Source of the DNA: an uncultured virus (IMG/VR IMGVR_UViG_3300035670_000196)
Taxonomy: Duplodnaviria > Heunggongvirae > Uroviricota > Caudoviricetes
DNA length: 64,000 bases
Virus record (IMG/VR): IMGVR_UViG_3300035670_000196
Strand: one strand, 5' to 3'
Shown: one piece after another, positions 1-64,000 of the stretch
How the letters are laid out: each line of letters opens with the position of its first letter
Position numbering within the stretch: position 1 is the first letter of the stretch
Notes under the pieces: generated by a model
Databases searched by the model: none
Told to the model about the DNA's origin: nothing
Seen by the model: only the letters and a program-made list of their open reading frames with translations
Position numbers and translations under genes: made by a program

Positions 1-1
1 A

Positions 2-586
2 CTTTGGCAAGGCGACACGCTATTAGAGCCACAGTTGGGGCCGCCAGAGGAGCACATACAGGTAAGTAGCACTGGTAAAGTTGGCAAGTCAGAGCGTTAT
101 CGAGTGTTATCCGGAGTCCCAAAACGCACCAGGGTTCGCGATTGGTTGATCAACCCACCGGAGCCACCATTTACGATTGCAATCGCTGAAAGTGGTCAGA
201 AGCATATCTTGTTCTTGGCTCAGACTGGCTACGATCGAGATAACTATCCGGTGCAATTTGAGATGGATTCTTTGGCGATCAATCGGGCTAAATTCGTCGC
301 ACTGCTTGAGGCCTATGAAGCATTGCTAAATTTAGCCTTTAGCAAAACTGAGATTGATACAGGCGAGTATCGGGCGGATCGATTAATAGCAAATTTTTAC
401 CAATGGCAATCGTTAGAGCAACAAATCGAACAATACCGATCGGGCGGTAAACCATCACGATTGCTACAATTGATTAGCTTTGTTGCGATCAAACCAAAAT
501 ATCAAGCATCTACTTTGCCTCAAAAAAAAGAACCACTAAGAGCAGAAAACAAACCTTTAGTACAAGCACAATTAAGTTTTTTCTAA
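2..586 (+). CDS. csf1: Type IV CRISPR-Cas large subunit Csf1 (Cas8-like), 5'-truncated by the window edge
   Basis: Frame is open from position 2 (LWQGDTLLEPQLG...). It contains the Csf1-like motif WLINPPEPPFTIAIAESGQKHILF and is coupled to cas6. The N-terminal Zn-finger part is not in the window. Confidence 0.75.
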   Translation, partial: LWQGDTLLEPQLGPPEEHIQVSSTGKVGKSERYRVLSGVPKRTRVRDWLINPPEPPFTIAIAESGQKHILFLAQTGYDRDNYPVQFEMDSLAINRAKFVALLEAYEALLNLAFSKTEIDTGEYRADRLIANFYQWQSLEQQIEQYRSGGKPSRLLQLISFVAIKPKYQASTLPQKKEPLRAENKPLVQAQLSFF

Positions 587-1206
587 TGAACGAATATGTT
601 GATTTGTATTGGAGCGTAATGGGCGATCGTTTACGCGCCGATCACAATTATCGGCTATATGCTGCACTAGTTGGCGCAAATCAAAATTTAAAACAAGTTT
701 CTTATCGAATGAATGCGATAAGCGGCGTAGCAGAAAATAATGGATGGATTAAGCTAAACCGTCAGTCTAAATTAATTATTCGCTGCAAATATCAAGACAT
801 ACATGAATTTGACGCATTAGATAATTCAATTATTCGTGTTGGACAAAATATTATTCAACTAACTTTCAACGGAGGACAAGCAGTTTCTTCAAAGCCTGCA
901 CTAACTGCAGATATTGTGACAATTAAATGTGAATTTAAATGTCGCGTTTCACCTTTTGAGTTTGGTGTTGCCGTAGGAAAACAATTGCAATCACTTGGAA
1001 TTCTTAGTATGCCAAGAATAGGTGATCGAAAATCTTTGCAAATCAAAGAATCAAATATTATTGGCTATGCAATTTTATTTGATTCTTTGACACCCGCAGA
1101 ATCACTTATGCTACAAGCCCATGGCATTGGCGGACGAGCAAAAATGGGATGTGGTTTTTTTGCAACGCTTTTTAAGGCAGGTTCGACTCCTGCGATCCGG
1201 GTTTAA
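586..1206 (+). CDS. cas6: Cas6 endoribonuclease (I-MYXAN/Cmx6-like)
   Basis: N-terminal VDL...G..L.ADHNY.LY.AL motif and C-terminal glycine-rich loop GIGGRAKMGCGFF. Start overlaps the csf1 stop (TAATG). Confidence 0.85.
   Translation: MNEYVDLYWSVMGDRLRADHNYRLYAALVGANQNLKQVSYRMNAISGVAENNGWIKLNRQSKLIIRCKYQDIHEFDALDNSIIRVGQNIIQLTFNGGQAVSSKPALTADIVTIKCEFKCRVSPFEFGVAVGKQLQSLGILSMPRIGDRKSLQIKESNIIGYAILFDSLTPAESLMLQAHGIGGRAKMGCGFFATLFKAGSTPAIRV
1175..1200 (+). repeat. 26-bp exact copy of the 3' half of the tRNA(CAT) gene (att-like direct repeat)
   Basis: AGGCAGGTTCGACTCCTGCGATCCGG occurs at 1175-1200 and 60756-60781. Confidence 0.95.
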
Positions 1207-1238: not shown

Positions 1239-1416
1239 TATGACACTTTGCGATCCCCAAGAAAGTGCCACATTTTAGCTTGACAAAAACGCAAACACCA
1301 AAAACATCGATCAAAATCTTGAAAAAGATCGGGAGCAAATTGCTGTGTGACAGTTTTATTGATCCCCACTAAAGTGTCACAATATCGACCTCAAATCAAA
1401 AATCATGTGGGATATT
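1239..1416 (+). promoter_or_regulatory. Dispersed operator/promoter motif (two TGTGnCA...TGnCACA boxes plus TGTGGGATATT)
   Basis: Same motif family as the copies at 37505, 39936, 44349, 46315, 48831, 49900, 55387 and 56090. Lies upstream of the ORF at 1444. Confidence 0.6.
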
Positions 1417-1443
1417 GGAACAAGTTCATTCGCGAGACACATT

Positions 1444-6939: not shown

Positions 6940-7202
6940 TATAGTCGGGGCCGTGGCTTAACTGTAACTACGTCGCCCATTTTCTGCAGCAAATACGATT
7001 CTCCGATCACCGGTTCTGACGTCGATAATACCTGTGCGTACAACGTGCCGCCATTGATTGATGTAAACGTGTGCTGCCCGTTGGTGTAACCGGTATAGCG
7101 CCCAATGGTATTAGCCGAATCGGTTTTAGCCTCAGCAGCTACGGCTTGGTTGATTGACTGGGTCAGAGCTATTCGAGCTTTCGATCGCGCTGTAGTTTTC
7201 AT
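6939..7202 (-). CDS. Small tail-region protein
   Basis: Coupled ORF in the tail operon. Confidence 0.5.
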   Translation of the reverse strand: MKTTARSKARIALTQSINQAVAAEAKTDSANTIGRYTGYTNGQHTFTSINGGTLYAQVLSTSEPVIGESYLLQKMGDVVTVKPRPRL

Positions 7203-7205
7203 GGA

Positions 7206-7565
7206 TTAAGCCACACTAGCGGGGATCGTCAGGAGATAGCTGATACTGTTTCCATCGCCCAGGGTGCCACTAATATCGTTTGTGCCTAGCTCAACGGTTG
7301 TCCCGCCTATCGTAAAAGCAATTCCGTCGTAAGTGATCGAGTCTCCTGAGCTATTGCTAAATGCAAAGGTAACTGGCCCCATACTGCCAGAGCTGGCGGC
7401 GATACCGCTAGCAGTCGTGGTCAACTCTGCTGCTCCTGTAACGTTGGCGTATGACGTACTGGTTGAGTACACAATGCCATTGGTCAGATGCCCCGTAATC
7501 GTTACGCCATTATAGCGATCGTTCAAAATGTCGTTTAGCGTTGCAGTCGGTATAAAAACAGCCAT
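7206..7565 (-). CDS. Minor tail protein
   Basis: G/S/T-rich beta-type composition; tail operon position. Confidence 0.5.
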   Translation of the reverse strand: MAVFIPTATLNDILNDRYNGVTITGHLTNGIVYSTSTSYANVTGAAELTTTASGIAASSGSMGPVTFAFSNSSGDSITYDGIAFTIGGTTVELGTNDISGTLGDGNSISYLLTIPASVA

Positions 7566-7582
7566 TTAGATCACCTGGGAAA

Positions 7583-7975
7583 TTAGCTAGCGGGCATTGT
7601 AATGGTTGCGGCAGTTAGGTCATAACTGGAGCCTGACGTAACAGAAAGAGATGGCCCAATCTCAATTTCCCCACCGCCCCCGCTTACTGTGACGTTTGTC
7701 CCGCTAATCACAATCGTGCCGTCTCGATCTTTATAGCGATAGGCAGCTGCAGTCCCAGTCGCGCCAGCAGTGGCACTGATTGGTAATCCTGTGGCCGTCG
7801 CAACCCCTGTTGAGGCAGAACCAAAAGCATTTGTGCCGTCGAGCGTAAACGTCAGCAATGTTGAAGCAAAACCGCTTGTGCCAATTTCCAGAGTCGGATC
7901 GCCAGTGCCTGCGTCAAGCAGATCGACCACGGCATTGCAAGCGGCGTTACGAGCGGCAGTTGTGATTGTAGCCAT
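7583..7975 (-). CDS. Minor tail protein
   Basis: AARNAACNAVVDLLDAG...A.ATGTAA pattern typical of virion proteins. Confidence 0.55.
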   Translation of the reverse strand: MATITTAARNAACNAVVDLLDAGTGDPTLEIGTSGFASTLLTFTLDGTNAFGSASTGVATATGLPISATAGATGTAAAYRYKDRDGTIVISGTNVTVSGGGGEIEIGPSLSVTSGSSYDLTAATITMPAS

Positions 7976-7987
7976 AAGAACTCCTAT

Positions 7988-10855: not shown

Positions 10856-11316
10856 GCTGTCGTTGCCCCCGTTTCCGTAAACTGCAGTTGCAGCAAATCC
10901 CCTGTTTTGTTCAGCCGGTCGAACTCAGGATATAACGTCGGCTCAGCATTGAACTGTGCATAGTACAACACCGTGGTGCTGTCGTCGTCTGCTGATGCAC
11001 CTGTAGCCAATGCCCTAGTGCGTGGGCTTGTTTCGGCAAAAGGCATTGTGTAATCTTCCAGCGTCCAGGCGGCAGGGGAGTCCCAATACAAAGCCATCAT
11101 TCGTTTCAGGGTTTCCCAGTCGTCTATGTCGAGGCGGCATTGAAAATCCCAGATGTGTTTAGGTCGATAGCTGGGTGAGCGACGAACAGAGGCACCACGG
11201 GCAGACTGCGAAATCTGAGCCCATTCGATCGTGCGGCGGGGATAGCGTTCGCCGGCAAAATCTTTGATTTCGACGCTGTAGCTGCCTAGGGTTAGGGTAA
11301 TTCCTGGTGCTGCCAT
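10852..11316 (-). CDS. Distal tail protein (Dit-like)
   Basis: Size and position directly after the tape measure gene. Confidence 0.55.
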   Translation of the reverse strand: MAAPGITLTLGSYSVEIKDFAGERYPRRTIEWAQISQSARGASVRRSPSYRPKHIWDFQCRLDIDDWETLKRMMALYWDSPAAWTLEDYTMPFAETSPRTRALATGASADDDSTTVLYYAQFNAEPTLYPEFDRLNKTGDLLQLQFTETGATTA

Positions 11317-33096: not shown

Positions 33097-33417
33097 GCAT
33101 TTACTTAGTGCTAATTAATACTGCCGCTATTTGCGCACTGAGAGTTTACAGGTGTAGCGAGCACGGCAAAAAACGATCGGCAATCCTCAGAACCACTGCC
33201 CCCTGACGTGCTGTTTTGACCCTGTTTCCTAAACACTTGCCCCTAAAAGCCTCGTAAAGGCACCCGAAAAAGCAAAAACGAACTGACCTATTAGCACGAT
33301 ACCCAACAAGGGTAAATGAAGCTTCTAGCGACCAATCAGCTAACGCACGGGTTGAGCTTCCATCCCGGTAAAAAACATGTGCGGAAATAAGCCGTGGTGG
33401 ACACGCGGTGATAATCC

Positions 33418-34325
33418 CTGCCTACTAACCCGCTTTCTATTAGATCTATGGAGGTTAGTGTCCCGGCTTGTTTTTTGCTCAAACGTATGTGGCATAAGGG
33501 TTTTAGCTAAAAAATAGGGTTAGTAGGCAGCAACGTGTTTTCGGCCTTTCAGAAACCCTGCCTACTAACCAAACTCCGGGACATTCAGCGAGGATCTAGA
33601 GCGTGAGTTAGGTAGTTGTCTAAGTAGTGGCGAAATTGCTTTGCCATCGCTACTGCTTGAGAAGCCGACTTAAAATCAAGGCAGTTGTAGATCCGGTATC
33701 CGCCTGCGCTCTATGCTATTGAGCTTTTCGTTGCTGAGTTTTGGTGAGCAAGGCTCAAAAACATATCTCGTCCAGATTTAGAAAATCGCCATCCGCAGCA
33801 GTGAAAATCCACGCTGAAGAAAAAACACCGTGAACTGTTAGGCGACTTTTTGCCAACCTTAGTCCAAAACTTATCCCCATGCGACTCTACAGCAAGGTAA
33901 GAGACTAAGTACGTTCTTTCGTCATACCAACGGGAGAACTGTGATCCGGTTGCATTGACCATCATTTTTTCGATCCTACTAATCGGCTTTCTATTAGATC
34001 TAAGGAGGTTAATATCCCGCCCTTAAAATCGCTGTATACCTTGGCGTGCAATAAGTTTAGCTTAATAACCCAGTTAGTAGGCAGGTTAGTAGGCAGGGGC
34101 ACTTTTCGCCGCCCATTTAGCTCAGTCGCTTGCCAGGCTCCGGGACAACCCAACCAGCTATTGCTCACCCGAACTTCATCATCGGTTTTGACAACGGGGC
34201 GAATTATTTCCCCGGGACACTAACTTGCTATTTCTTAGATCTATGGAGGTTAGTGTCCCGGGGGGCAAAATGCTGAAACGTATGCGCCGCAAGTGTTCCA
34301 CACGAAAAACAGGGTTAGTAGGCAG
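33418..34325. repeat. Iteron-like repeat region, candidate replication origin
   Basis: Six exact copies of CTGCCTACTAAC/GTTAGTAGGCAG (33418, 33519, 33558, 34073, 34085, 34314) and three copies of a TTAGATCTAwGGAGGTTA core. Homologous in inverted orientation to 60126-60238. Confidence 0.8.
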
Positions 34326-34854
34326 CGGGGTGTTTTTCAGGGTTTCTTGACACGTCCGACGGGTGGTTTATTGCCCGCATTTCTGCCTCAACGTTGTAGC
34401 TCGGGGTAGTATCTTCGATGGCCCTGGTAAGTCGCCTCAGAAATGGCAGTGCTGGCTTAAGGGCGGAGACGACTGCAGTCACTATATTGTTGGTGTCTGA
34501 AATCTGCCGTTGCATCTGTCCTATTTCACGCCCTTGTTTACTTTGATACCTTCGCATGTCGTCATAGTCGGCTTTGAGATGATTGGCGAATGTGCGGGCG
34601 TCACCGATCAGGGAGTCCAAAGCATAGGCTTGGGATTGGATGTTTGCTAATTCTTGCCGTACGTCGCCTATAGCCGCGTCTGTAGCGGTTTCAGCGTGCT
34701 CTAGGTCATCGACCCGCTGGGTAAGCGAATTAACCCGTTTAGCTAGCGTAGATAGCAATGCAGCGACGTATTGCAATTTTGCCTCAGGGGTTAGTTCGTT
34801 GAAGGTCGTCGGGGGCGAGGGTAAAGGGGAGGCGGTGATTTGTGGAGGGTGCAT
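34315..34854 (-). CDS. Coiled-coil hypothetical protein
   Basis: 179-aa ORF with heptad pattern. Confidence 0.55.
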   Translation of the reverse strand: MHPPQITASPLPSPPTTFNELTPEAKLQYVAALLSTLAKRVNSLTQRVDDLEHAETATDAAIGDVRQELANIQSQAYALDSLIGDARTFANHLKADYDDMRRYQSKQGREIGQMQRQISDTNNIVTAVVSALKPALPFLRRLTRAIEDTTPSYNVEAEMRAINHPSDVSRNPEKHPAAY

Positions 34855-35066: not shown

Positions 35067-35996
35067 ATGTGCTTAAAAATCGAAATTCACGAACCCGGAT
35101 TAAGCGTTGGAACGATCGCAATTGCTAGCAGAATAAATGACGATTCAGTTATTACAATTGGTCGTCCTTTTTATGGGAGTAATTCCTCTCACATATCGAT
35201 ACGGACGGCTCCTAAATTAATCAGTCGTCAGCATTTATCAATGAGATTAAATGATGACGAATCTATTGATATTTTAGACGGGGCTTATTTAGCTGATGGA
35301 AGCTACCGTGCTAGCACTAATGGAGTGTGGGTAGATGGCAAGCGAATTCAGCCCCAGCAATGGCAGTTGCTGCTGATTGACGCGACGATTCGCCTAGGCA
35401 ATCCTAAGCAACCGGAGTTACTCGGATTTTTTATTAAGCTGGGCACGAATGAGACAGACCATGGCGCGTCTTTGTCTACGGTGTCATTTGATGCCAAGGA
35501 AGTTTGGGAAGCGACACGAAGAATGGTTACGGCTGGGTGTTTGTTGGTGCGGTGGGTGTCTCAATCGAAAACAGCTATCGTACTGGCCATTGATAGTCAG
35601 GCTGAAAGCGAGTTAGGGGCTCAGTCGGGGGAATTGGTTAGCGATGCTGGGGAATTTGCCCTAGAGTCGTTAATTGAGGCGGACGATCGAGTACAGCTGC
35701 AGCAGGCGGCAGAACTAGCGACCAAACAGGATGCGTCGGTGATTGGTACATATAAAGTGGGTGAGCGTGACGTGCGGATTAAATTTTCGCGCAGGTTTGT
35801 AAATGGCGAAGTATTGCTGTTGGGATTTGTGGAGGCTGTTGCCAGTCCAAAAAAGTTTCCGACTATTACTGGGGACGGGGGTTGGCCTGCCGTAGGGGCT
35901 CAAGTCGTTGAGCGGCTAAGCGACGATAATCCGATTTGGCTGGTCATCTTGGCTGTGCTGGCGTTAGCCGTGGTTCTGATTGTGAGCGGGCTGTGA
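35067..35996 (+). CDS. FHA-domain protein with PAS-like middle and C-terminal TM anchor
   Basis: FHA motifs IGR, ISRQH and STNGVWVDG; hydrophobic C-terminus. Confidence 0.8.
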   Translation: MCLKIEIHEPGLSVGTIAIASRINDDSVITIGRPFYGSNSSHISIRTAPKLISRQHLSMRLNDDESIDILDGAYLADGSYRASTNGVWVDGKRIQPQQWQLLLIDATIRLGNPKQPELLGFFIKLGTNETDHGASLSTVSFDAKEVWEATRRMVTAGCLLVRWVSQSKTAIVLAIDSQAESELGAQSGELVSDAGEFALESLIEADDRVQLQQAAELATKQDASVIGTYKVGERDVRIKFSRRFVNGEVLLLGFVEAVASPKKFPTITGDGGWPAVGAQVVERLSDDNPIWLVILAVLALAVVLIVSGL

Positions 35997-37549
35997 TTGA
36001 GTTATCTGAGGCATTACACATCCTAGACATGCTTCCGATCGCCTTGGGCATTTGGGAGCCAGAGGGTGACGATTTGCGATGTCTTTTTTACAATCGTGCT
36101 GCAGTTGACTCGACTGATGGGCTAAACCAGTCTGGGGTGTTACTGGGAGAGATGCTGCCTGGTCATCGCAAAATACAGGCTGATGGTCGTACTCAGTTAG
36201 ACCGGTATATTGCGATCGCCCAAGGTATAGAGCCAGGGGTATCTGGCCCATTAGAATATGCTGGTTTCGAGATCAGTACGTCGCAGTTTTGGCAATCAGC
36301 CCAACCCATTGAGCTACAGGGGCGACAGTGCATTGTGATTGCTTGGGCACCGTTGGCGCAGTTTGCAATCTGTGATCCAATGACAGGGCTATTTAGCCGC
36401 CAGTATTTGGAAATTGAGATCAACCGATCTATTCGCCAAGCGCCTAGTAGTTCATTTGTTCTTTTTTTGGACTTGGATAAATTTAAGCCAATTAATGACG
36501 TTCGGGGGCATGCTGCGGGCGATTATGTTTTGCGATGCGTGGCCCAACGGATTAAAGGTGCTCTGCGATCGACAGATACGGCTGCACGGTGGGGGGGGGA
36601 CGAGTTTGCTGTATTAGTTCGGGATGGTGATGGCGATAAGGTATACCAGTTTGCCGAACAGCTAAGAGAGGCGATCGAAAAGCCGGTCGATGGATTTGCT
36701 GTGACAGCATCAATAGGCTGTACTACCGTTGCTGATACCCTTGAAGCGACGATGGCGGTGGCTGATTGCTGTGTGTATCTAGCCAAAGAAAAAGGCGGAA
36801 ACAAGGTTGTGGTAAGCGATCCCGCTATCATTGAGCGGCACAATAGGCACCAGCGAATCTTAGAAGCCATCGAAAATGATGAGTTCCTGCTGTACTACCA
36901 GCCGATTGTGGGCTTAAGGTCGGGTAATGTGGCTGGATATGAAGCCTTAGTGAGATGGCAAGATGGGGATAAGTTAGTTTCGCCTGATGCGTTTGTTCCC
37001 GAACTTGAGAGAACTGGCGAGATCTGGCGATTGTGTAAAAAGGTGTTTGCCATGGCTGCAGCTCAGCAGCGGTTGATTGCTCCATTATGGGTATCGGTTA
37101 ATCTATCGCCTGTCACCCTAGACCGGCATGATTTTCGGGAAATTGCTAAACCTATGATTGGTGGGCATTTCGAGGTGCTGGAGTCTCGAAAGCTATCTGA
37201 TAATGCCGTCGCTGAGCTTGCGTTGCTGCGGGCGAATGGCAGCAAAATTGCCCTAGACGATTTTGGTGTAGGGCAGAGCCGGTATGCAGAGTTTGATCGG
37301 GTGGATTTGCTAAAGCTCGATAAATCCCTGGTTGACGGGGTAGAACAAGATATCCGAGTTGTTGCCGGAATCTTAGGAATGGCTCACTCTATAGGGTTGC
37401 AGGTCGTCGCTGAAGGGATTGAAACAAAAAAACAAGCCGACCTGCTACAACAGATCGGCTGTGATTTTGGACAAGGATGGTTTTTTGGCAAGCCAGTTCC
37501 ATTATGTGCCAATTCCAAAAAACTGTCACAAACTAGCTTGCAAACTTAA
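35993..37549 (+). CDS. GGDEF-EAL diguanylate cyclase/phosphodiesterase
   Basis: DPMTGL, DLDKFK.IND..GH..GD, RWGGDEF, YQPIV, YEALVRW, SVNLS, DDFG, KLDKS, VAEGIE and QGW. Probable GTG start in a GTGA overlap. Confidence 0.95.
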   Translation: MIELSEALHILDMLPIALGIWEPEGDDLRCLFYNRAAVDSTDGLNQSGVLLGEMLPGHRKIQADGRTQLDRYIAIAQGIEPGVSGPLEYAGFEISTSQFWQSAQPIELQGRQCIVIAWAPLAQFAICDPMTGLFSRQYLEIEINRSIRQAPSSSFVLFLDLDKFKPINDVRGHAAGDYVLRCVAQRIKGALRSTDTAARWGGDEFAVLVRDGDGDKVYQFAEQLREAIEKPVDGFAVTASIGCTTVADTLEATMAVADCCVYLAKEKGGNKVVVSDPAIIERHNRHQRILEAIENDEFLLYYQPIVGLRSGNVAGYEALVRWQDGDKLVSPDAFVPELERTGEIWRLCKKVFAMAAAQQRLIAPLWVSVNLSPVTLDRHDFREIAKPMIGGHFEVLESRKLSDNAVAELALLRANGSKIALDDFGVGQSRYAEFDRVDLLKLDKSLVDGVEQDIRVVAGILGMAHSIGLQVVAEGIETKKQADLLQQIGCDFGQGWFFGKPVPLCANSKKLSQTSLQT

Positions 37550-44110: not shown

Positions 44111-44338
44111 CTAACGTAAGGAAGACCAGTCGTTTTCTAGCACAACAAAAGTCTCCGTTCCCGGTGCGTCACACTTGGCGTAACCGGCCTCAATCAACTC
44201 GTCTTCAGTGTCCTCGGAAGAAAGGGGATAGACTTCGCAAAAGTCATAATCCTTGTGCCCCCAATAACACCCGAGGTCATCCTTGACAATTTTGTCAAAC
44301 ACGTAGTAATTAATCATCTTTCTTTCGCTCTCGCTCAA
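44111..44338 (-). CDS. Small acidic protein
   Basis: Downstream of the promoter motif at 44349-44418. Confidence 0.5.
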   Translation of the reverse strand: MSESERKMINYYVFDKIVKDDLGCYWGHKDYDFCEVYPLSSEDTEDELIEAGYAKCDAPGTETFVVLENDWSSLR

Positions 44339-46645: not shown

Positions 46646-47290
46646 ATGTATATCACCCCGAAGGAAGCACAAAAAAAATACGGGTATCACCCCAAGACTT
46701 TAGCCAATTGGGCGGACGACGGGAAAATACAGTTCACTAAATCACCTGGCGGACACAGGCGCTATGCGGTGGCTAGCTTAGAAGCCGTAGCAAGCGATCC
46801 AACAAAAGAGATTATCTGCTATGTCAGAGTTTCAACTAGATCCCAGAAAGACGATTTGCAAAATCAGCTTGATTATGTCAGTAGCCACTACCCACAGGCT
46901 GAGTGTATTACCGACTACGGCAGCGGACTTAATTTTAAGCGTAAACGATTCCTGAAGCTAATGGAACGAGTTTCAAGGCGGGAAGTCGCGACGATAGTCG
47001 TTGCTCACAAAGATCGCCTTTGCCGCTTCGGCTTCGATTTTGTCGAATGGTTCTGTCAATTGAACGGTTGTCAAATAAAGGTTCTGAACAATACCTACAA
47101 GCCACCGCATCAAGAGCTTATGGAAGATTTCATGGCGATAATGCACTGCTTTAGCAGCAAGCTGTATTTTTTGAGGCGATATGAAAAAGAAATTCGGAAT
47201 GAATCGGAAAAAGCGGAACAATGTGATATAATATGTCTATCCACTGAAGAAGGTCGAACTGATGGGGCTCAAGCGGAAGAAGGGATTTAA
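46646..47290 (+). CDS. tnpA: IS607 TnpA serine transposase
   Basis: N-terminal HTH (TL..W...G....PGGHRRY), YVRVST..QKDDL..Q, GSGLNFKRK, HKDRL.RFGF and ELMED. Confidence 0.95.
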   Translation: MYITPKEAQKKYGYHPKTLANWADDGKIQFTKSPGGHRRYAVASLEAVASDPTKEIICYVRVSTRSQKDDLQNQLDYVSSHYPQAECITDYGSGLNFKRKRFLKLMERVSRREVATIVVAHKDRLCRFGFDFVEWFCQLNGCQIKVLNNTYKPPHQELMEDFMAIMHCFSSKLYFLRRYEKEIRNESEKAEQCDIICLSTEEGRTDGAQAEEGI

Positions 47291-48569
47291 TATAGCGACT
47301 AAGTCCGTGAAGGCTAAATTGGTTCGGGAGGGCTTTGACCTGACTGAGACGAAAAGAGCTTTCAATGAAGTCGTTGAATTCTATTTTCTGCTTGTCTCAA
47401 CCCGCCCAGAAGGGATAGATATTCCCGTCTCTGATGATGGCGGATGGCGGTTTTACGAGATCCTGACGCAGGATAATGGTGAATTTCCTTTGCCATTTGC
47501 GGGTTTTCCGTCGTCCCTAAAGCGAGCTGCTATACGTCGTGCAATCGGCGCTTATAGCGCTTGGGATACGGCTTACCAGAAGTGGATAAATCGCCCTGAG
47601 AAGTACAAACATCATCGTCCCCCTGTTCAACCAAGAACGTTTTCCTTTTCCCCTCAGATGGATAAAGGAATGTGGAAAGACGATGACGGAGAATCTATCG
47701 TACTAAAAATATTGATGGGTTCCCAATGGAAGTGGATTAAATTCCGATACCATTCTCGGGAGATTGGCGACGATTGGGTAAAAGGATCTCCTAGCCTCAT
47801 CGTCAAGGGTAATAACGTTAGCATCGTTTTCCCTTTAGAGCGGTATGTCCCTGCTACTGGCGGATTGAAAACCGTTCTCAAAAAAGATATTGTTCGAGTC
47901 GCGTCAGTGGACGTTGACTTGGACGATCATCTTGCTATTGTTTCGATTCTAGAAAGCAAAGCTAGCGGAGAAGTGAGAGAACTGGCACGTCACTTTATCT
48001 CCACACCTCTGGTAAAGCTTAGGAAGCGCGATTTAGGTCGAGTTGCAATTAAGATGTCACAGACAAAAATCGTTTGTGAAGGCTTTGCTTCTAACCTATG
48101 GACTAAACTTCATAACCGTGAAGTTGAAATGGGTAGAGCAGCCGCTAGGCAAGTTGTAGATTTATCCGTTGGGTATGGTTGCGAAGTCATCGCCTTTGAG
48201 CACTTGACGAACCTTAAACCAGCCAAAGGTAAATATTCAAAGCGTTCAAACAAAAAACGAGCTTATTGGCTTAAGTCTCGTCTTTTTAGCGAAACCAATA
48301 GAGTCGCCTACAACGAGTTTGGCATCTTGACAACCCGTGTTTCTCCACGAAATACGTCTCGACTAGACCCTTGGGGTAACGCGGTAAACCGTGGCTCCAC
48401 ACCTACGGCAGAAGGCTATCATGCTGGTGCTGATTGGGTGAACGGGCCACGCGGTTACAAGGCCCATTCTGGGATCAACGCAGCGAGAAATATTGGGTTG
48501 AAAGCGATAGCAAGACACAGCACTAACCCGCCGACGCTTTACTTAGGTAAAGAAAAACCAGTCGGATAA
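47262..48569 (+). CDS. tnpB: TnpB RNA-guided nuclease with atypical RuvC-III
   Basis: SVDVD (RuvC-I), IAFEHL (RuvC-II), VSPRNTS and INAARNIG. Confidence 0.85.
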   Translation: MGLKRKKGFNIATKSVKAKLVREGFDLTETKRAFNEVVEFYFLLVSTRPEGIDIPVSDDGGWRFYEILTQDNGEFPLPFAGFPSSLKRAAIRRAIGAYSAWDTAYQKWINRPEKYKHHRPPVQPRTFSFSPQMDKGMWKDDDGESIVLKILMGSQWKWIKFRYHSREIGDDWVKGSPSLIVKGNNVSIVFPLERYVPATGGLKTVLKKDIVRVASVDVDLDDHLAIVSILESKASGEVRELARHFISTPLVKLRKRDLGRVAIKMSQTKIVCEGFASNLWTKLHNREVEMGRAAARQVVDLSVGYGCEVIAFEHLTNLKPAKGKYSKRSNKKRAYWLKSRLFSETNRVAYNEFGILTTRVSPRNTSRLDPWGNAVNRGSTPTAEGYHAGADWVNGPRGYKAHSGINAARNIGLKAIARHSTNPPTLYLGKEKPVG

Positions 48570-56762: not shown

Positions 56763-59700
56763 ATGATTTCTGCAAGTCTCCACGTGGATCAAAGCGTATT
56801 TAGCGGAAAGTTTGATTACAATGCGCAGTGCCCGGTTTGTGATAAAAAGGGCTGCTCAGTCCGGGAAGGCGGCGGCGTCCATTGCACGACACACCGCAGC
56901 GGCAATAAGGGCGAAACCCTAAACGGGTATGAGTTTGTAGGGGAAGATCGCAGCGGGTTAGGACTGTGGCGGCCCTATGTCGAAAAAGGTAATCGCCAAA
57001 CATCGACATACCGGCTGCAGACGACGGCAAGGACGCTAGAACCAGTCGCACAAATAGACTTAGCCAAACGGGATAGCCAGTTGCGGGCATGGGCTGAGGA
57101 ATCGCCTATTACTGGCGAGCAACGACTATTCCTGAAAAACCGAGGGGTTAGCCGGGAGCAGGTGATGCAAGCGGCCAACGACGAAGCTATTTTTTGGAAT
57201 ATCCAATACGGGGAAGACGGATTTGACAGCACAGGGCTACCCGGTAACTGGACTGAGGACGGCAAATATCAAGGCGTAGAGGGCCTTGCCATCGCTTGCC
57301 GCCAGCGACTAGAACCTAATGGCCCATGGCATATCCTCGGTGCTCAGATCCGCCCCAGCAAGATCAGAGATGGCGGAGGTAAATACTTATGGCTCAGCAG
57401 AGAGGAAGCTTCAGCACGGATCAGCCAATGGGGCGAGTTACCGATCACCGTCCATGAAACCACCGGCACAACGGGGCACTTGACTCTATGCGAGGGAACG
57501 CTCAAACCGTGGCTAATTGCCCAGAGAGCCGACATCCATAGCATTGACTTAGGCGTAGCGATCGTTGGCTGTGCTGGTTCGGCGTGGGCATCAACATCAT
57601 GGACTCAGATCGAGCATCAATGCACTAAAGTGTACGGGGTAAAAGATATTCACTTAGCCCTTGACGCTGGCGCGGTTCAAAACCGTAACGTTTGGGGTGG
57701 AGTCAGACAGCTGGCCCAACGATGCAAAAGAGCAGGCTTAACTTTAAAAATAATCTGGTATGGCCAACTCGAAAAAACTAACGGTGACCTTGACGAACTG
57801 ACGGAAGTCACTCCATACCAGTTGCTAACCGTTAACGAAGTCGAGGCCCAATTCTGCCAGCCTGACGTAATCCCGGCGTCAGCGCTGCTACTCAAGCCGT
57901 CACCTGGGTTTGTCGACGATTACGGGTATCTGCCCGATCACGCTGACATCCTATTACCGGCGATCTCAAAAACGCGATTGACAGCCATCCGCGCTAACAA
58001 AGGGACTGGAAAAACCCAGCTAATTAAAAAACTGGTAACTCAAGCTATCGAGCGAAAACAGCGTGCAATTATCTTCACCCACCGCCTCGCTCTTGGCGCT
58101 GCCCAAGGTGCACTGCTGGGCCTGCCCGTCAAAACTGAGGTCAGAGAATACGGACGGGGCGAAGGGTTTGTTATTACCGTTGACTCCGCTCACCCTGGCT
58201 CTGGGATGCGGTACAGCGCTGACCATGACCTACAACACGATGGGGGGGGCACTTTAGTCATCATTGACGAGTGCGATCAGGTTTTCGATCACATCGCCCA
58301 CGGCAAGACAGAAATTAAGCGGCACCGCCAAGCCGTGATTGACGAAATCAGCGAAACCCTAGCAGGTGCCCGCAACGTTGTCCTGCTCAGTGCCGACATT
58401 ACCGACTGTCACGTTGCCCTAACTCAACAGGCAATGGGCATCACCGACTCGCTAAACATCGTCAATACCACTACACGTAAACTAGGCAATGTAACGGTTC
58501 ATACAAACCCGTTCTCCGTACGATTTGAAGCCGAGCAAGCACTAGAACGGAATGAACGCATTCTAATAAAAGTCAGCGGCCAAAAATCAGACTCAAATCA
58601 CGGTACGTCTGCACTGCATGCTTACCTGAAAGCATTATACCCAGAGAAGAAGGGTGTCATTTTTGACGGAAACACACTTAAAGATCCGTCTAATCCTGAC
58701 ACTTTTATTAATGGTATAAATGTACTGCAGTGGCTCAGCCATCCTGATCCCGAAGAAAGGCTACGGCGACAAGAGGAGTATTTTGCTCAGTACGATTGGG
58801 TGATTTTTAACAACGCTTGTGGTACCGGAGTATCGTTTGAGACCCCCCTATTCCACGGTTTTTATCAGATCGAAACTGGGGTAGGGTCAATCCGTGACGC
58901 GGCCCAGGCGACGGCAAGGCTAAGACCTCATTTTTACGAAGACGCCGAGGGTAACCGTCAGCCGCTTCAGCGCCACATCTACTGTGCCCCGATTGGCCTT
59001 CCTCAGCTGCGATACGGCAATGGGGCGACGGCTCCCAATAAACTTGCAGCGGGCGAAGATAAGGCATGGGAAAAGCTCGTAAGCCAAATACAGCAAGTCG
59101 GGGGGGCTGATTGGTTGCCATCTTCACCGCTCGAATACTCGTCACCACGGGCTCAAGCGTGGTTGGGGTATGCCATTAACCGGGCTGCTGAATTTAACGC
59201 TGAATCGCTCAACTATGCCCAGGAATTTTGGAAGCAATTACAAGTCGAGGGCTACAGCCTCGGCGACTATAACGGCGATTGGAATCAGATAGGCGACAGT
59301 GAGCAGAAGGCCTATAAAGCCGGGTGCACATCGGCAAGGGATCTGCTACACAGCAAGGCATTAGAACAGATAGCTGCTGAGCCCATGGATGGGGCAGATG
59401 TGGCGAAACTAGCCCAGCAACGGGAGTTGACCCCAAAGGAGCATAGGCAGCTAAAAAAGGGCCGAACCATGGAACGATACGGTCTCGACGAAGAGACCGT
59501 AGATGTCGCCGTCCTTGACGCTGAGCACAACGGCATTTATCACAAACTGATGCTGCGATACCTAGCTGAACAGCCCAAAGCCGTGGCTCAGGAACGCGAT
59601 AAGGTGACAGCATGGCATGAACTAAACGAAGGGTCTCCTTGGGGGCGTGATCTTGCCAAGCGGGCTTATTCACCGAGACTGGCTCTCCTAAGAGAACTAG

Positions 59701-60644
59701 GGGCGATTGCCTTACTAGAATCGGCTAAGAACGGAGAAAAACTTTACAGTGCCCACCCTGATGTTTTGGCGGTAGCAGCTGCAGCCTTGAAGCGACGGGA
59801 CGATGTTAAAGACATCCTAGGGCTGACGGTTGGGGTTGAGTCTTATAACAAACGAACGGCTCAAATGGAAATCAAGGTTGATCGCCCGATCGTAGTCGCT
59901 CAGAATTTATTTGAGTTGTTAGGGTACGGACTGTCCCGAATTAAAGAACGGGTTCGGAATGAGCAAGGTAAGCGGCATTGGCAGTTTGAGCTGACCGATA
60001 GCAAACCGGCGGCGATTGACTGGGTAAAATTCGGGGAAATTCAGGAGAAAATTATGAAAGAACGGGCTGAAAAAGTGGATGGATCACCGGTCAATTTAGT
60101 GCTGAGAGAGGCCAAAAATGACCCGCTGCCTACTAACAGTGAAAATGAGCTAGAACCTAATGATGACAAGGGTTTCGATGAAAAACAGGCCGGGACACTA
60201 ACCTCCATAGATCTAATAGAAACCGAGTTAGTAGGCAGTAAAAATGGCGATACCCGCATCCCTGATTCTGGGGGGGCTGCTGCTGGGGCTGATCTGAGGG
60301 TCGGTGACCGGGTGATTTACACGGGTGAGGCTCCAAATAGTGCTAGATCTGCCATTCTCCGAGCCATAATGCAGCCGTTACCAGGGGTGATTGTCTACCA
60401 GTTATCGGCTACCGAGGACGGGGCTGCGTGGGGAGCGAGACAGCATGAGGTGTTACTGGTGGATACTGACGAACCATTGGCAATACAGGTGATGCGGATG
60501 ATGCAAGCGGTACGGACGCCCGACGACTGGTCTAAGCTTGGCCGTCAGTACGATGCTGAGACATGGCAAGCTGCTTGGTCTGAGCTAATTGTGGAGGATG
60601 AACAAAAGGCTTTGTTTATCCAGCAAATGATGATGGCGGCTTGA
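56763..60644 (+). CDS. Primase-helicase replication protein, CyRepA1/DUF3854-like
   Basis: N-terminal CPVC...C Zn finger; TOPRIM-like KYLW / CEG.LKP / DAG / DLDE; helicase motifs KGTGKT, HR..L, IIDECDQ and TGVSF. Confidence 0.8.
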   Translation: MISASLHVDQSVFSGKFDYNAQCPVCDKKGCSVREGGGVHCTTHRSGNKGETLNGYEFVGEDRSGLGLWRPYVEKGNRQTSTYRLQTTARTLEPVAQIDLAKRDSQLRAWAEESPITGEQRLFLKNRGVSREQVMQAANDEAIFWNIQYGEDGFDSTGLPGNWTEDGKYQGVEGLAIACRQRLEPNGPWHILGAQIRPSKIRDGGGKYLWLSREEASARISQWGELPITVHETTGTTGHLTLCEGTLKPWLIAQRADIHSIDLGVAIVGCAGSAWASTSWTQIEHQCTKVYGVKDIHLALDAGAVQNRNVWGGVRQLAQRCKRAGLTLKIIWYGQLEKTNGDLDELTEVTPYQLLTVNEVEAQFCQPDVIPASALLLKPSPGFVDDYGYLPDHADILLPAISKTRLTAIRANKGTGKTQLIKKLVTQAIERKQRAIIFTHRLALGAAQGALLGLPVKTEVREYGRGEGFVITVDSAHPGSGMRYSADHDLQHDGGGTLVIIDECDQVFDHIAHGKTEIKRHRQAVIDEISETLAGARNVVLLSADITDCHVALTQQAMGITDSLNIVNTTTRKLGNVTVHTNPFSVRFEAEQALERNERILIKVSGQKSDSNHGTSALHAYLKALYPEKKGVIFDGNTLKDPSNPDTFINGINVLQWLSHPDPEERLRRQEEYFAQYDWVIFNNACGTGVSFETPLFHGFYQIETGVGSIRDAAQATARLRPHFYEDAEGNRQPLQRHIYCAPIGLPQLRYGNGATAPNKLAAGEDKAWEKLVSQIQQVGGADWLPSSPLEYSSPRAQAWLGYAINRAAEFNAESLNYAQEFWKQLQVEGYSLGDYNGDWNQIGDSEQKAYKAGCTSARDLLHSKALEQIAAEPMDGADVAKLAQQRELTPKEHRQLKKGRTMERYGLDEETVDVAVLDAEHNGIYHKLMLRYLAEQPKAVAQERDKVTAWHELNEGSPWGRDLAKRAYSPRLALLRELGAIALLESAKNGEKLYSAHPDVLAVAAAALKRRDDVKDILGLTVGVESYNKRTAQMEIKVDRPIVVAQNLFELLGYGLSRIKERVRNEQGKRHWQFELTDSKPAAIDWVKFGEIQEKIMKERAEKVDGSPVNLVLREAKNDPLPTNSENELEPNDDKGFDEKQAGTLTSIDLIETELVGSKNGDTRIPDSGGAAAGADLRVGDRVIYTGEAPNSARSAILRAIMQPLPGVIVYQLSATEDGAAWGARQHEVLLVDTDEPLAIQVMRMMQAVRTPDDWSKLGRQYDAETWQAAWSELIVEDEQKALFIQQMMMAA
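60126..60238. repeat. Intragenic iteron module, inverted copy of 33418-33530
   Basis: CTGCCTACTAAC...GTTAGTAGGCAG. 60190-60222 is the exact 33-bp reverse complement of 33434-33466. Confidence 0.85.
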
Positions 60645-60709
60645 TAAAATATAGGGGTTGTTTATCAGGAGACTTCTGCTCTCACTACCGCCCCACTGCG
60701 GGGTTTCTT

Positions 60710-60782
60710 CCGGGTCTGGCCGAGCGGAAAGGCAGCAAACTCATAATTTGCCATTAGGCAGGTTCGACTCCTGCGATCCGGA
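60710..60782 (+). tRNA. tRNA with CAT anticodon (elongator Met or Ile2), CCA not encoded
   Basis: Acceptor stem CCGGGTC/GATCCGG, D arm GCC..GG..GGC, anticodon arm GCAAA-CTCATAA-TTTGC, T arm GCAGG-TTCGACT-CCTGC, discriminator A. Confidence 0.9.
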
Positions 60783-60839
60783 TTGCTTTGTAACCAATGC
60801 TTTTTGTGTAAAAATAAAAAAACTCCTATGGAGATCGGA

Positions 60840-61388
60840 ATGTTATACGGAATACGTGGATGTACAGATCCAGCGACGGCTTATATTAGTTCGTTGACTT
60901 ATTGGGTTTTTTCGTGCAGAGATCGCAACAAGACTCCGGCGCAGGGGCTTGAAAAATGGAGCTATCTTGGCTCCGCAATTCAGCAAGCTGCGGTGACGGC
61001 GCAATCGATCGAGCAGTATCAGGCGAATTTGGCCGATCGACTAAAGGCGAAATCTCCGGTATTGAGCCGTTACGCAAAAATGCTGGTGCATGAAGAAAAC
61101 CAGCGAGTGATTTTGTTTGGAACTAAAACAGAAGCTGGTTTAACTGATTTACAAGAATTTAGCAGTCACCAAGCATTACCAATTTATGCTAGTCCCGCTG
61201 ATGTTTTGCAGGATTTGCTAGCGCAAGGGATACGCGAGTCAGAAATCTTGAAGATTGCCAAACCCACACGATTGGGCGGCAAGCCTTTTGTTGTGCAAAT
61301 GTACTGCCAAGTGGCAGATCAGGTGTTTGGGTGGCAACCGCCCGCTGAGGAAGATGAAACGATCGATATCGAAGTGGGGGTCGCCTAA
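60840..61388 (+). CDS. Type IV small subunit (Cas11-like)
   Basis: Helical protein MLYG...Y.VF..RD....W......AA..A directly upstream of csf2; RBS GGAG. Confidence 0.6.
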   Translation: MLYGIRGCTDPATAYISSLTYWVFSCRDRNKTPAQGLEKWSYLGSAIQQAAVTAQSIEQYQANLADRLKAKSPVLSRYAKMLVHEENQRVILFGTKTEAGLTDLQEFSSHQALPIYASPADVLQDLLAQGIRESEILKIAKPTRLGGKPFVVQMYCQVADQVFGWQPPAEEDETIDIEVGVA

Positions 61389-62605
61389 TGTCTGGAATTG
61401 CTGAATACAAGCCTTTTGAGGGGCGGCGGCAAATTAAACTTCACGTCATTTTTGACTTGCAACAGCCGTTGTCTCACATTTCGGAGACAACGGGAAATGA
61501 ATCGCTACTGAAGACAACATCGATGGTCGCGATTGATGGCGAGAAAGCGCAGGTGCCGATCTATTCCGGGAATGCGCAACGGAATGGCAACCTGGGGCGT
61601 CGGACGGGTATCGCATCGTTTCTGGATGCGCTGGATGTGGCGGTGAACAAATCGACTCATCAAACGCTATACAGCGGCGGATACATTGAGGGCAGTACGA
61701 TTAATGATTTTGAGGCAGAAGAACGCATCCGAAAACTGTTGCCAAATCTTTCTTTGTTGGGTGGAGCGATCCCGCCGGAAACGCTGGGAATGCCAAAAGG
61801 AAAATCCCAGATGATAGAAGGGCGGCTGAATATCGGTGATGCTTATTTGGTTTGCTACGAATCAGTCCCCTACATCTACGAGCAATGTCCGGCGCTGTTG
61901 CCGTGGGAAGCGATGGAGTCGATCGATCTACTGATGGCCCGTCGCCGCAAGTTTATTGATCTGCGCTACGGCTTAGCCGCTGGCAAGGTCGATCGGATGG
62001 CGGTAAATAAGGCTTGGCAAGCATTAAAGGCAACCGAGGCGGAGCACTTGCCGATTATTCGGCATCATTGCAAGCCGTCTTCCGAATATTGGGAGTATCG
62101 GGAGTCGGTGCGAGTTCCTAGCTATAAGCAGTCTGAGCTATCGCGGCATCTTGCGGGTAGTAAGCCCAAACTGCTAAAAGGTGATGAGGAAAAGAAAAAA
62201 GGAGACAAAAAAGAAGCTGGGCGACAAATGATTTCGGGTGCTTGGGTAATTCAGCGTGGCGCTCAGCTTTACTCTCTCTGGTGTAGCCGTGGACAAGGAA
62301 TTACGCCTCTTGAGGAAGGTGCCTTGGTTAATACGCTGCTGGAGTTTGCTAAGCAGCCCTACCTTGGCGGTAGGGCTAATGCAGGATGTGGCCTAGTGTC
62401 AATATCGATCCGCTGCGAAGCTGATGGGCAGTCGGGGGATTACCTCTCGCTGTCCCAATCGGCGCAGGTGATCAGCGATCGGGCAGCAAATTGCCACCAA
62501 CGCTATCAAGATATGGTGCGCATCTACCAAGAGCACATTGCCGAAATCAAGGCGGGTGGCACTGTCGAGTCAGCCGATGCCTTTAATTTATTGGGGGTAA
62601 GCTGA
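61388..62605 (+). CDS. csf2: Type IV backbone protein Csf2 (Cas7-like)
   Basis: PLSH, VPIYSGNA.R, LYSGG, SLLGG, MIEGRL.IG...LVCYE, QMI and LGGRANAGCG motifs. Confidence 0.85.
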   Translation: MSGIAEYKPFEGRRQIKLHVIFDLQQPLSHISETTGNESLLKTTSMVAIDGEKAQVPIYSGNAQRNGNLGRRTGIASFLDALDVAVNKSTHQTLYSGGYIEGSTINDFEAEERIRKLLPNLSLLGGAIPPETLGMPKGKSQMIEGRLNIGDAYLVCYESVPYIYEQCPALLPWEAMESIDLLMARRRKFIDLRYGLAAGKVDRMAVNKAWQALKATEAEHLPIIRHHCKPSSEYWEYRESVRVPSYKQSELSRHLAGSKPKLLKGDEEKKKGDKKEAGRQMISGAWVIQRGAQLYSLWCSRGQGITPLEEGALVNTLLEFAKQPYLGGRANAGCGLVSISIRCEADGQSGDYLSLSQSAQVISDRAANCHQRYQDMVRIYQEHIAEIKAGGTVESADAFNLLGVS

Positions 62606-63312
62606 TGCAGCCACTACGAGTAACCGCCCACTTAGCCAATAAATTGGCGGTGAGTGATGATTGGTCGCCGTCGCTTGATGCACTCCTAATTAAGCTACTA
62701 CTGGATGAGCGGGGATTATCCAGTAGTAACCCGATGCTGGAAGATGTCGTTCGAAACCAGCCTGTGATTGACGCCAATATGCCGATCTACAAAGGTGAAA
62801 TTAAAGGGGAATGGTACTGGCAGACCTCAAGCCCTTGTTATTTGTGGGATGCCGATGAAGTGGAAACCATCTACAAACGATGGGATCAACAAGAGCGTAA
62901 CTTGAATTGGCAAGGCAAGCGGCGCAACTGGAGCACATCCGAGAATAATACAAAGTCCTGGACAATCCTTATTTCGGAGCGATCGACCCCGCGTATCGAC
63001 TGGTATTGCATCGGTGATGCGCTGGAGATCCAGCGGTTGTTAACTCTGTCTGATAGATTGGCTAAAAAACGTCGGACACAGGTCTATCGATGGGACGTCG
63101 AGGCAATTGATCAAGATTGGCATTTATGGCGTGATCAAGAAATAATGCGGCCAATGCCAGTGGATTTAATTGATACGCCACCTCATGATTTTGCAATTCG
63201 GCGATGGGCATGGCGGCCACCGACGCATTTGCCTGAGAATGTGGCTAAGTGCCTGATGCCTGTAACAACAGCAAAGCGAGTTAAATCAGTTTATGTGTGG
63301 GGAACGGAGTGA
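62605..63312 (+). CDS. csf3: Type IV Csf3 (Cas5-like)
   Basis: MQPLRVTA.L, LDALL, WYCIGD..EI..LL, KKR, RPMP and RPP motifs. Confidence 0.8.
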   Translation: MQPLRVTAHLANKLAVSDDWSPSLDALLIKLLLDERGLSSSNPMLEDVVRNQPVIDANMPIYKGEIKGEWYWQTSSPCYLWDADEVETIYKRWDQQERNLNWQGKRRNWSTSENNTKSWTILISERSTPRIDWYCIGDALEIQRLLTLSDRLAKKRRTQVYRWDVEAIDQDWHLWRDQEIMRPMPVDLIDTPPHDFAIRRWAWRPPTHLPENVAKCLMPVTTAKRVKSVYVWGTE

Positions 63313-64000
63313 TGGATCTATTGGAGCGCGAGGCGTTTTCGGTTTATGCGCAGTTGCCAAAATTTAAGCGCAAAGTTAATCAGGCTTTAGTTGTAATTCG
63401 TGAAGCATTAAAAATTGGGCCTGCCTACGTTGCTGTTAGTTGGGGAAAAGATTCGGTGGTGATGCTGCACTTGTGTCAGCAGGTGCAGCCGGATATTTTG
63501 GCAATCAGCTTTAGCCATCCAGAACGAAGCATGATTTCTAATTATGAAGAGGTAATCGATCAATATCGCCAACGATTTGGCCTGAATTTAAAAGATATTG
63601 CACTAGCTGGCGACCATGTCCCGGCCAAAGTCGAACAGGCTAAGCTTTGGGATACTTGGCCTGTTGGTTTTATTGGATTGAGAAAAGAAGAGTGCGATCG
63701 GAGATCTATGGCATTAATTAAGTATGGATTGCTGCATCAATACCAGTCTGGGAGTAGATCTACTAGTTGGCGTTGCTGCCCGGTTGGTTGGTTTGGTTGG
63801 CGTGATATTTGGGCTTACATTTGTGCAAATAACCTGCCGTACTTGTCAATTTACGATCAGCTTTCCAGAGACCGAGGAAGAACTACAGATCATTTATCAA
63901 AAACTATGGACAAAGCATGGCAGCAACGCCGATTTGAAGAGATCAAGTTGGTTGCACCAGAATATGCAAAATATTTGCAGGAGAATCATGCAGAGAATTT
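63312..64000 (+). CDS. cysH: CysH/PAPS-reductase-like protein (type IV-B associated), runs off the window end; not in the ORF track
   Basis: My translation gives MDLLEREAF...YVAVSWGKDSVVMLHL...FIGLRKEE...PVGWFGWRDIWAYI..NNLPY..IYD. Starts in a TGATG overlap with csf3. Confidence 0.85.
   Translation, partial: MDLLEREAFSVYAQLPKFKRKVNQALVVIREALKIGPAYVAVSWGKDSVVMLHLCQQVQPDILAISFSHPERSMISNYEEVIDQYRQRFGLNLKDIALAGDHVPAKVEQAKLWDTWPVGFIGLRKEECDRRSMALIKYGLLHQYQSGSRSTSWRCCPVGWFGWRDIWAYICANNLPYLSIYDQLSRDRGRTTDHLSKTMDKAWQQRRFEEIKLVAPEYAKYLQENHAEN

Follow-up and report, generated by a model that had tools for sequence, protein, structure and literature searches.

A type IV-B-like cas module between a phage-borne tRNA(CAT) gene and an orphan copy of its 3′ end, arranged like the scars of an insertion into a tRNA gene

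In the uncultured virus record IMGVR_UViG_3300035670_000196 of IMG/VR, a stretch of 64,000 nucleotides from a member of the Caudoviricetes (hereafter the window, meaning the whole of that stretch), an intact tRNA(CAT) gene close to one end and an orphan 26-bp copy of its 3′ part close to the other enclose, across the joined window ends, a compact operon of CRISPR-associated (cas) genes of type IV-B-like composition. On balance, the tRNA gene and the orphan fragment are probably attachment-site (attL-like and attR-like) scars of one site-specific event, in which a recombinase-less cassette of ~5 kb was inserted within the 3′ half of a tRNA gene on a phage-like replicon. We infer a recombinational origin, the class of the enzyme and an event within this phage lineage, and we regard the cassette as more likely to be a fixed remnant today than an active element. 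Altogether, the locus shows a known footprint cleanly, in a carrier that is unusual for it.

The repeat, the tRNA gene and the bracketed module

The original prediction, made from the letters of the window, held that a 26-mer occurs twice in the same orientation, and this was borne out exactly: AGGCAGGTTCGACTCCTGCGATCCGG is present on the + strand at 1175-1200 and at 60756-60781, with 0 mismatches between the two exact copies, and none of 100 dinucleotide shuffles of the window gave two matches to it. A third copy with up to three mismatches is absent from the window, as are further partial tRNA copies of more than 10 nt. When the flanks are included, identity covers 28 of 29 bases (repeat family D20), the sole difference being the discriminator, A at 60782 and G at 1201, and TT follows in both places.

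The tRNA proposed in the same prediction is real by both ARAGORN and Rfam RF00005. The intact gene comprises 73 nt (60710..60782, +), has no encoded CCA and carries the discriminator A. ARAGORN reports a single tRNA in the window, a tRNA-Met(cat) at 60709-60783, and RF00005, applied to 301 bases, scores 49.6 bits at 60710-60782 (gathering score 29; E 6e-10); the whole-window Rfam gathering scan did not list the gene, which was taken as a filter miss. The Rfam ends were adopted for the coordinates, and with them the acceptor stem consists of seven pairs, C1-G72 to C7-G66, including one G-U, with a starting C that is shared by the cyanobacterial homologues. The first repeat copy, the attL-like core (60756..60781, +), starts two nucleotides ahead of the T stem and reaches as far as acceptor position 72 in the Rfam alignment; the prediction that the repeat consists of the T arm and the 3′ acceptor strand was therefore correct, with the last two variable-loop bases to be added. 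The second, attR-like copy (1175..1200, +) is an orphan tRNA 3′ part that lacks a 5′ half and is followed by G and then TT.

The core of the window tRNA is 85-89% identical to one tRNA(CAT) per genome in 157 of the 401 sampled cyanobacterial genomes, and by its sequence the gene is of the cyanobacterial single-copy CAT type, with Met and Ile2 as candidate identities. On the opposite strand (60710-60783, −), the same bases match the Rfam family Plastid-ycf2 5′UTR at 32 bits, below the gathering score; we take this family to overlap plastid trnI-CAU, and the match is a lead only toward tRNA-Ile2. The orphan fragment is identical to the phage tRNA (26/26), as against only 21-22/26 for the four of 10 host tRNAs that were read in register (L187-L190). 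Additionally, the acceptor stem of the window tRNA is unlike that of the 10 closest cyanobacterial homologues retrieved.

As had also been claimed, the DNA that lies between the repeat copies on a circle is the cas module, a single type IV-B-like operon with cas6: it measures ~4.6-5.1 kb and holds cas11-like, csf2, csf3, cysH-like, csf1 and cas6 genes only. The first of these, the cas11-like small-subunit gene (60828..61388, +; 186 aa), has a second ATG at 60840, its start thus lying 45-57 nt after the tRNA. Its product has no Pfam or PHROG match and is homologous to the open reading frame (ORF) directly upstream of csf2 in all 7 of 7 related loci (BLASTP E 1e-21 to 1e-26; by profile, E 4e-32); from its position and the type IV-B description in the consulted part of PMC7038947, it is a putative Cas11 small subunit. 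It is followed by csf2 (Cas7-like; 61388..62605, +; 405 aa; TIGR03115 cas7_csf2, E 7e-7, below cut-off), 34-41% identical to the csf2 of related loci, and by csf3 (Cas5-like; 62605..63312, +; 235 aa; TIGR03116, E 1e-4, below cut-off), 31-47% identical across them. The next gene, a cysH-like gene for a phosphoadenosine phosphosulfate (PAPS)-reductase/PP-loop protein (63297..64000, +; PF01507, E 7e-12), runs off the window with ~3-6 codons missing; its product (63297-63998) also shows a weak TilS N-terminal match (E 3.6e-4), which probably reflects generic PP-loop similarity. At the other window end lie csf1 (Cas8-like; 1..586, +; TIGR03114 cas8u_csf1, E 1.6e-11, below cut-off), truncated at the 5′ side with ~72 codons missing, and cas6 of the Cmx6 family (586..1206, +; 206 aa; PF09559, E 9e-40; TIGR02807, 120 bits against a cut-off of 98.85).

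Judged by this predicted gene content, the locus is a type IV-B-like effector module plus Cas6. A DinG/RecD helicase and adaptation genes are absent at the module, and a script that picked up arrays in 35 of the other 149 cas6 loci detected no CRISPR-like array in the window or in 18 related loci. Far from the operon, a 75-aa ORF (44111-44338, −) is 62% identical to a small ORF in the modules of loci L005, L011 and L012, where that ORF sits between cas6 and cysH; perhaps it is an accessory or a regulator of such modules that has so far gone unrecognised.

Contiguity of the window ends, which the original prediction had presupposed, is very probable, with an unseen gap of no more than 693 bp between them. 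The limit follows from the Cas6 protein cluster, which occurs on three contigs, the longest having 64,693 bases and leaving up to 693 bases unseen. The two truncated genes fit such a gap, in that CysH residue 233 of the window aligns to residue 236 of the 239-aa homologue in L007, the first Csf1 residue corresponds to position 73 of P0027, a homologue of 271 aa, and a Csf1 of 100% identity on a short contig (P0026) extends 28 residues further upstream. Both L007 and L026 have the gene order cas11-like, csf2, csf3, cysH, csf1, cas6, with cysH abutting csf1, and the cut cysH-like and csf1 genes of the window have the same strand and the same order. Furthermore, among public contig sets labelled X1 to X4, of which X1 may be the source run, contig 6 of X1 runs from 60193 past base 64000 for another 29 kb, contig 15 of X2 runs 4.5 kb past the window end, and X1 and X2 each hold a record in which the 26-mer is followed by the sequence found from 1201 onward. 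These contigs break at 60193-60218 because of a repeat copy in the replication gene described below. Because the gap is limited to 693 bp, of which at least ~230 bp should be cas coding sequence, it would be too small for an integrase, and the predicted lack of a visible integrase in the cassette stands. The junction between the tRNA and the cas operon is bridged without differences by record 13 of X2, record 22 of X3 and record 30 of X4, all from one study, so that it is not an artefact of one assembly. We take Logan contigs to be built from 31-letter words, in which case the 26-bp repeat alone could not produce a false join.

Insertion scar or other origin

On the joined ends, the intact tRNA (60710-60782), the cas operon and the 3′ fragment (1175-1200) follow one another in the direction of the tRNA gene itself. 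An intact tRNA, its cargo and a downstream fragment make up the order that insertion into the 3′ half of a tRNA gene yields, and the topology named in the original prediction is accordingly the one expected. The converse assignment, in which the 59.5-kb phage would be the insert, was rejected; it would place the fragment upstream of the intact tRNA, unlike the insertion mechanism.

The bracket is, moreover, tight. The DNA it encloses is a complete and conserved six-gene module and nothing more, opened by the cas11-like gene, as in 7 of 7 related loci, and closed by cas6, as in L007 and L026; a motif dispersed through the backbone has no listed copy between the repeats. At the downstream border, codons 197-206 of Cas6 (KAGSTPAIRV), together with the stop codon, fall inside the tRNA fragment or immediately behind it. 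Among 16 homologues, Cas6 ends one residue past its GCG[VF]F motif in 7 and within four residues in 10, as compared with 14 residues past the motif in the window, the last 10 of them encoded by the fragment. Such a long tail suggests that cas6 either had the repeat added to its native end or lost that end to the repeat.

In the event envisaged, a tyrosine-type recombinase would have been supplied in trans by the host cell or by a co-resident element, and strand exchange would have taken place in or next to the T loop, with the T stem providing the inverted core arms. Incoming DNA with a matching T arm and acceptor strand would have restored the tRNA, and the original 3′ part of the gene, displaced by it, would have been left behind cas6.

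Several observations weigh against such an insertion or fail to support it. No recombinase was found among the visible genes of the bracketed DNA, and no match to the tyrosine integrase family (PF00589) among 76 scanned frames of the window (73 to 1293 aa). The GC content of the cassette (46.2% vs 48.3%) lies within the range of backbone windows (42.7-51.8%), and 13 of 111 such windows have a tetranucleotide distance as large as its own or larger, so that it is not compositionally foreign; foreign composition supports an integration scar and does not strictly define one. In the copy that would be the original, displaced one, the discriminator is G, against A in the intact gene and in host homologues, which would require a later mutation or an odd ancestral tRNA. 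Classical attP sites require arm sequences; the arms here would be cas6 coding sequence and the 45-nt leader, so that only a simple core-site recombinase would fit. Within the DNA retrieved for 18 related modules, several of them on short contigs, none has a tRNA nearby, and no direct repeat of at least 15 nt brackets the module in the nine loci for which both flanks were compared, those of L012 and L013 having an upstream flank that is nearly nil or partial. The exact 26-mer has 0 matches in viral contigs, in metagenome contigs and in the genomes of 185,579 species (one per species), and the contig collections searched yielded neither an empty site nor an excised circle nor a relative lacking the cas genes; contigs cannot reveal rare excision products either way. 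For the replication protein (Rep) encoded next to the tRNA, neither viral contigs nor GenBank phages contain a close relative, and 10 long records of relatives of the large terminase (TerL; 32 TerL loci) contain no homologue. RF00005 matches one of these 10 records, in an 85-nt tRNA of another kind, and a CAT-type tRNA occurs in none of them.

Scans of viral contigs with Csf2, with Rep and with the integrase type of locus L010, one protein at a time, yielded no relatives; searches of the phage collection by DNA, Rep or Csf2 and of the plasmid collection by DNA were without a match. Loose ends at 60781 in X1 and X2, which run into the sequence found from 1201 onward, were considered as an empty site and rejected by depth arithmetic. 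In X2, the depth of the bin 60421-60821 (14.6) equals the sum of contig 13 (13.8) and of 26 nt of contig 15 (12.1 x 26/401 = 0.78), and the X1 bin has no depth beyond that of contig 6 (26.3), which itself runs past the window end and includes both copies; the loose ends are thus most simply the second repeat copy, placed by its 26 letters.

The proposal that the cas module was inserted into a phage-borne tRNA consequently receives a divided answer: the att-like topology supports it, while a long residence of the tRNA in the phage backbone finds no support in the 10 records of TerL relatives, which lack CAT-type tRNAs. The expectation that homologous cas modules might be flanked by tRNAs found no support in any of the 18, and excision in trans, which the original prediction had also raised, is a conjecture.

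The lack of a CAT tRNA in the TerL relatives means that the tRNA may have arrived together with the cassette, and this leads to the alternative that survives best, unlikely as we consider it. According to this explanation, the insertion took place earlier and elsewhere, and the phage took up the tRNA, the cassette and the fragment as one piece by illegitimate recombination; the att scars would then be real, yet silent on a phage-borne target. The tRNA is of a cyanobacterial chromosomal type (the 157 of 401 genomes mentioned above), phages often acquire tRNA genes, and, besides the missing CAT-type gene in the 10 records, no tRNA at all was found in 380 kb around the 32 TerL loci. However, the breakpoints of such a capture would be confined to the 65 nt upstream of the tRNA, where the Rep stop codon lies at 60644, and to ~170 nt after the fragment, where the backbone motif appears at 1370. 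The acceptor stem, unlike that of the 10 closest cyanobacterial homologues retrieved, and the 26-mer, with 0 occurrences in the 185,579 species genomes, likewise leave such a captured island with no visible donor.

Held in similarly low regard is the more far-reaching possibility that the operon is a still-active recombinase-less cassette, which would hop between cyanobacterial phages and plasmids by means of a borrowed tRNA(CAT)-specific tyrosine recombinase, like the enzyme encoded next to cas6 in L010, and with phage-borne tRNA genes as its landing pads. Phages would in that case exchange a CRISPR-derived effector module in much the way that integrons exchange cassettes.

Somewhat more doubtful again is an origin without any site-specific recombination, in which the fragment would be the remnant of a second full tRNA gene, brought in by a cointegrate through homologous recombination between two replicons that each had this tRNA, or by a tandem duplication, and then reduced by deletions. 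The lack of a recombinase inside the cassette and its backbone-like composition are in keeping with this account, as is the in-frame fusion of the fragment to cas6, such as a deletion end-point could produce. Nevertheless, several deletions would have to leave, by chance, exactly the complete conserved module, the fragment would have to begin right at the T arm, and the DNA between the repeats contains nothing else left over from a donor replicon.

A phage attachment site is very improbable. In that case the orphan 26 bp would be the attP core for a host tRNA, and the full tRNA would compensate for the damaged host gene; a full tRNA combined with a partial tRNA-like site is known from tRNA-dependent lysogeny, as far as the consulted text of PMC10865867 goes, and the core of the window tRNA is host-like. 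This is opposed by the absence of a tyrosine or large serine integrase in the 64 kb, where only a small serine transposase of the IS607 type was found, by the identity of the fragment to the phage tRNA and not to host tRNAs (21-22/26), together with the absence of the 26-mer from all 185,579 species genomes, and by a plasmid-type Rep and an iteron-like block, which suggest extrachromosomal maintenance. Finally, an assembly artefact, in which two molecules sharing the 26-mer were joined, is scarcely credible: the source is a metagenome assembly, with all runs that hold the sequence coming from one study, but the tRNA-cas junction is bridged with zero differences in the separate contig sets X2, X3 and X4, which rules out a one-off misassembly, the repeat is shorter than the presumed 31-letter words, and the one X1 contig that starts at 60193 crosses the window end and continues for 29 kb.

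Carrier replicon and related modules

The window is a novel siphovirus-like phage with a cyanobacterial host, and possibly a phage-plasmid. Its phage-like nature, part of the original prediction, is confirmed by structural genes recognised by Pfam: a large terminase, a portal, DUF2213 (capsid protease-like), a cement protein, a major capsid protein and a tape measure. The best GenBank phage match of the capsid protein is a Synechococcus siphovirus, at just 26% identity, and a cyanobacterial host range is supported by the resemblance of the tRNA to cyanobacterial tRNA(CAT). The gene that precedes the tRNA encodes a replication protein of 1293 aa with a CyRepA1-type domain (56763..60644, +; NF042913, E 7e-55; phrog_4913), and its stop codon lies 65 nt before the tRNA. 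On the far side of the bracket, the first backbone copy of the dispersed intergenic motif (1370..1420, +; families D2-D8) lies 170 nt past the fragment. Copies of this motif, which were taken from the 20 largest repeat families, contain TGTGACA/TGTCACA palindromes and occur at 1240-1420, 37519, 39923, 44311, 46277, 48822, 49862, 55385 and 56103; a similar palindrome is found at 6769-13702 of the 84-kb viral contig of L006, which has cas6 and no detectable csf genes.

The sole recombinase seen in the window is a 214-aa protein with HTH_17 and Resolvase domains, assigned to the IS607-type transposases of phrog_6620 (E 4e-51), and the integrase type of L010 has no tblastn match in the window. This small serine recombinase belongs to an IS607-like pair at 46646-48569, in which it overlaps a 435-aa ORF with a faint match (E 0.061) to the Cas12f1-like TNB (TnpB-like zinc-ribbon) domain. 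In a non-coding block at 33400-34340, a 45-nt unit occurs in three direct copies (33421, 33975, 34216) beside further short repeats, and an inverted 58-nt copy (95%) lies inside the 3′ part of the rep gene, at 60181-60238; the block looks like an iteron/origin region or an antisense control element. Other genes of the backbone include a portal protein (20167-22701) with a C-terminal ADP-ribosyltransferase (ART) domain (PF01129, PF03496) and, in a separate gene, a GGDEF-EAL protein (35936-37549). An ORF similar to HNH endonucleases (2119-3054, −; phrog_374, E 5e-10) is situated 0.9 kb beyond the orphan fragment and is followed by a RuvC-like resolvase and a DNA methyltransferase at 4183-5437.

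Related modules were identified through an alignment of Cas6 homologues, which located 167 loci, in 17 of which csf or cysH genes lie beside cas6, all of them on viral or metagenome contigs. An eighteenth (L224; record positions 77455-82462) was found on plasmid pGMOR1 of the cultured cyanobacterium Gloeobacter morelensis, with genes for cas11-like, csf2, cas6/Cmx6, csf3-like, PAPS reductase, cupin and csf1-like proteins, nearly all annotated as hypothetical; upstream of it is an IS4 transposase, and no tRNA is present up to 8 kb away. Groups of these modules differ by a shuffled gene order, and the backbone proteins of the window match those of related loci in only one small ORF and the portal-borne ART domain. 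The occurrence of related modules in unrelated backbones and in shuffled order suggests that the module travels. In L013, an imperfect ~37-nt repeat that contains a hairpin is present on both sides of the module (337-375 and 5268-5300) and adjoins the C-terminal end of a TnpB-like ORF; it could be the end of an insertion sequence (IS) or an RNA element.

The closest relative of the module is found in the 1.1-kb contig L010 (Csf1 61% and Cas6 52% identical), where Cas6 ends right after the motif. At 934-1113 (−) of that contig, a gene convergent on cas6 ends in a stop codon located 5 bases past that of cas6. Its product is visible over 59 residues, which are 92-98% identical to PF00589 proteins of 363-369 aa in six of seven matches, the seventh being at 76%; Pfam gave no match for the 59-aa fragment even at E 10, and its identity as an integrase derives from the protein search. 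A tyrosine integrase beside cas6 in L010 suggests that such modules ride on integrase-bearing elements.

Significance and comparison with known systems

If the insertion took place as proposed, the virus's own tRNA gene was the way in for an entire CRISPR-derived effector operon, in the form of a discrete and minimal cassette. Phage-borne tRNA genes would then join the list of landing pads for mobile DNA, and a concrete route would be provided for the spread of the poorly understood array-less type IV-B systems among phages and plasmids. In addition, the Cas6 encoded here resembles host Cas6 enzymes, which hints at the use of host CRISPR RNAs.

With type IV-B systems, as characterised in the portion of PMC7038947 consulted, the module shares csf1, csf2, csf3, a small subunit and a cysH-like gene, carriage on mobile elements, and the lack of dinG, adaptation genes and a CRISPR array. 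According to the same portion, type IV-B modules reside mainly on plasmids of Actinobacteria and Cas6 is a rare exception among them, with 12 instances; unlike the typical form, the window module carries a Cmx6-family Cas6 and is thus such a rare variant, and, unlike the published modules treated there, those considered here are found on phage-like contigs and one cyanobacterial plasmid. The Csf proteins of the window, moreover, score far below the curated NCBIfam cut-offs for type IV families. A narrow literature search, which is not proof of absence, found neither reports of type IV modules in cyanophages nor of elements integrated into phage-borne tRNA genes.

The arrangement as such corresponds to the attL/attR scars that tyrosine-integrase islands, prophages and integrative and conjugative elements leave in tRNA genes: an intact tRNA at one border, an orphan 3′ part on the same strand at the other, an identity block that opens at the T arm and closes with the acceptor stem, and cargo between the two borders. 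Integration within tRNA genes was reportedly divided into sublocation classes by Williams in 2002. Unlike such scars, the window cassette has neither integrase nor excisionase, is limited to ~5 kb and a single operon, and targets a tRNA on a phage-like replicon instead of a chromosome; its identity block stops one base before the discriminator, and no empty site was found.

The tRNA-dependent lysogeny of actinobacteriophages likewise combines, in a phage genome, a complete tRNA with a second tRNA-related site. In the passages of PMC10865867 that were consulted, however, it relies on a phage integrase and on only ~10 bp in common with the host tRNA, whereas the window phage lacks an integrase and its 26-bp copy matches the phage's own tRNA.

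The nearest described cyanobacterial case is that of the tycheposons, as presented in the section of 10.1101/2020.12.28.424599 consulted: elements of marine picocyanobacterial chromosomes with a tyrosine recombinase and usually a replication module, whose targets include one of three tRNA-Met(cat) genes and for which integrase-less remnants are described. Common to both are the cyanobacterial setting, the position of the cargo beside a full-length tRNA and the partial tRNAs at the borders. In contrast to tycheposons as described there, the DNA between the window repeats contains no recombinase, whether tyrosine or small serine, and no replication module, and it is a phage that carries them, with a CRISPR-Cas effector operon as cargo.

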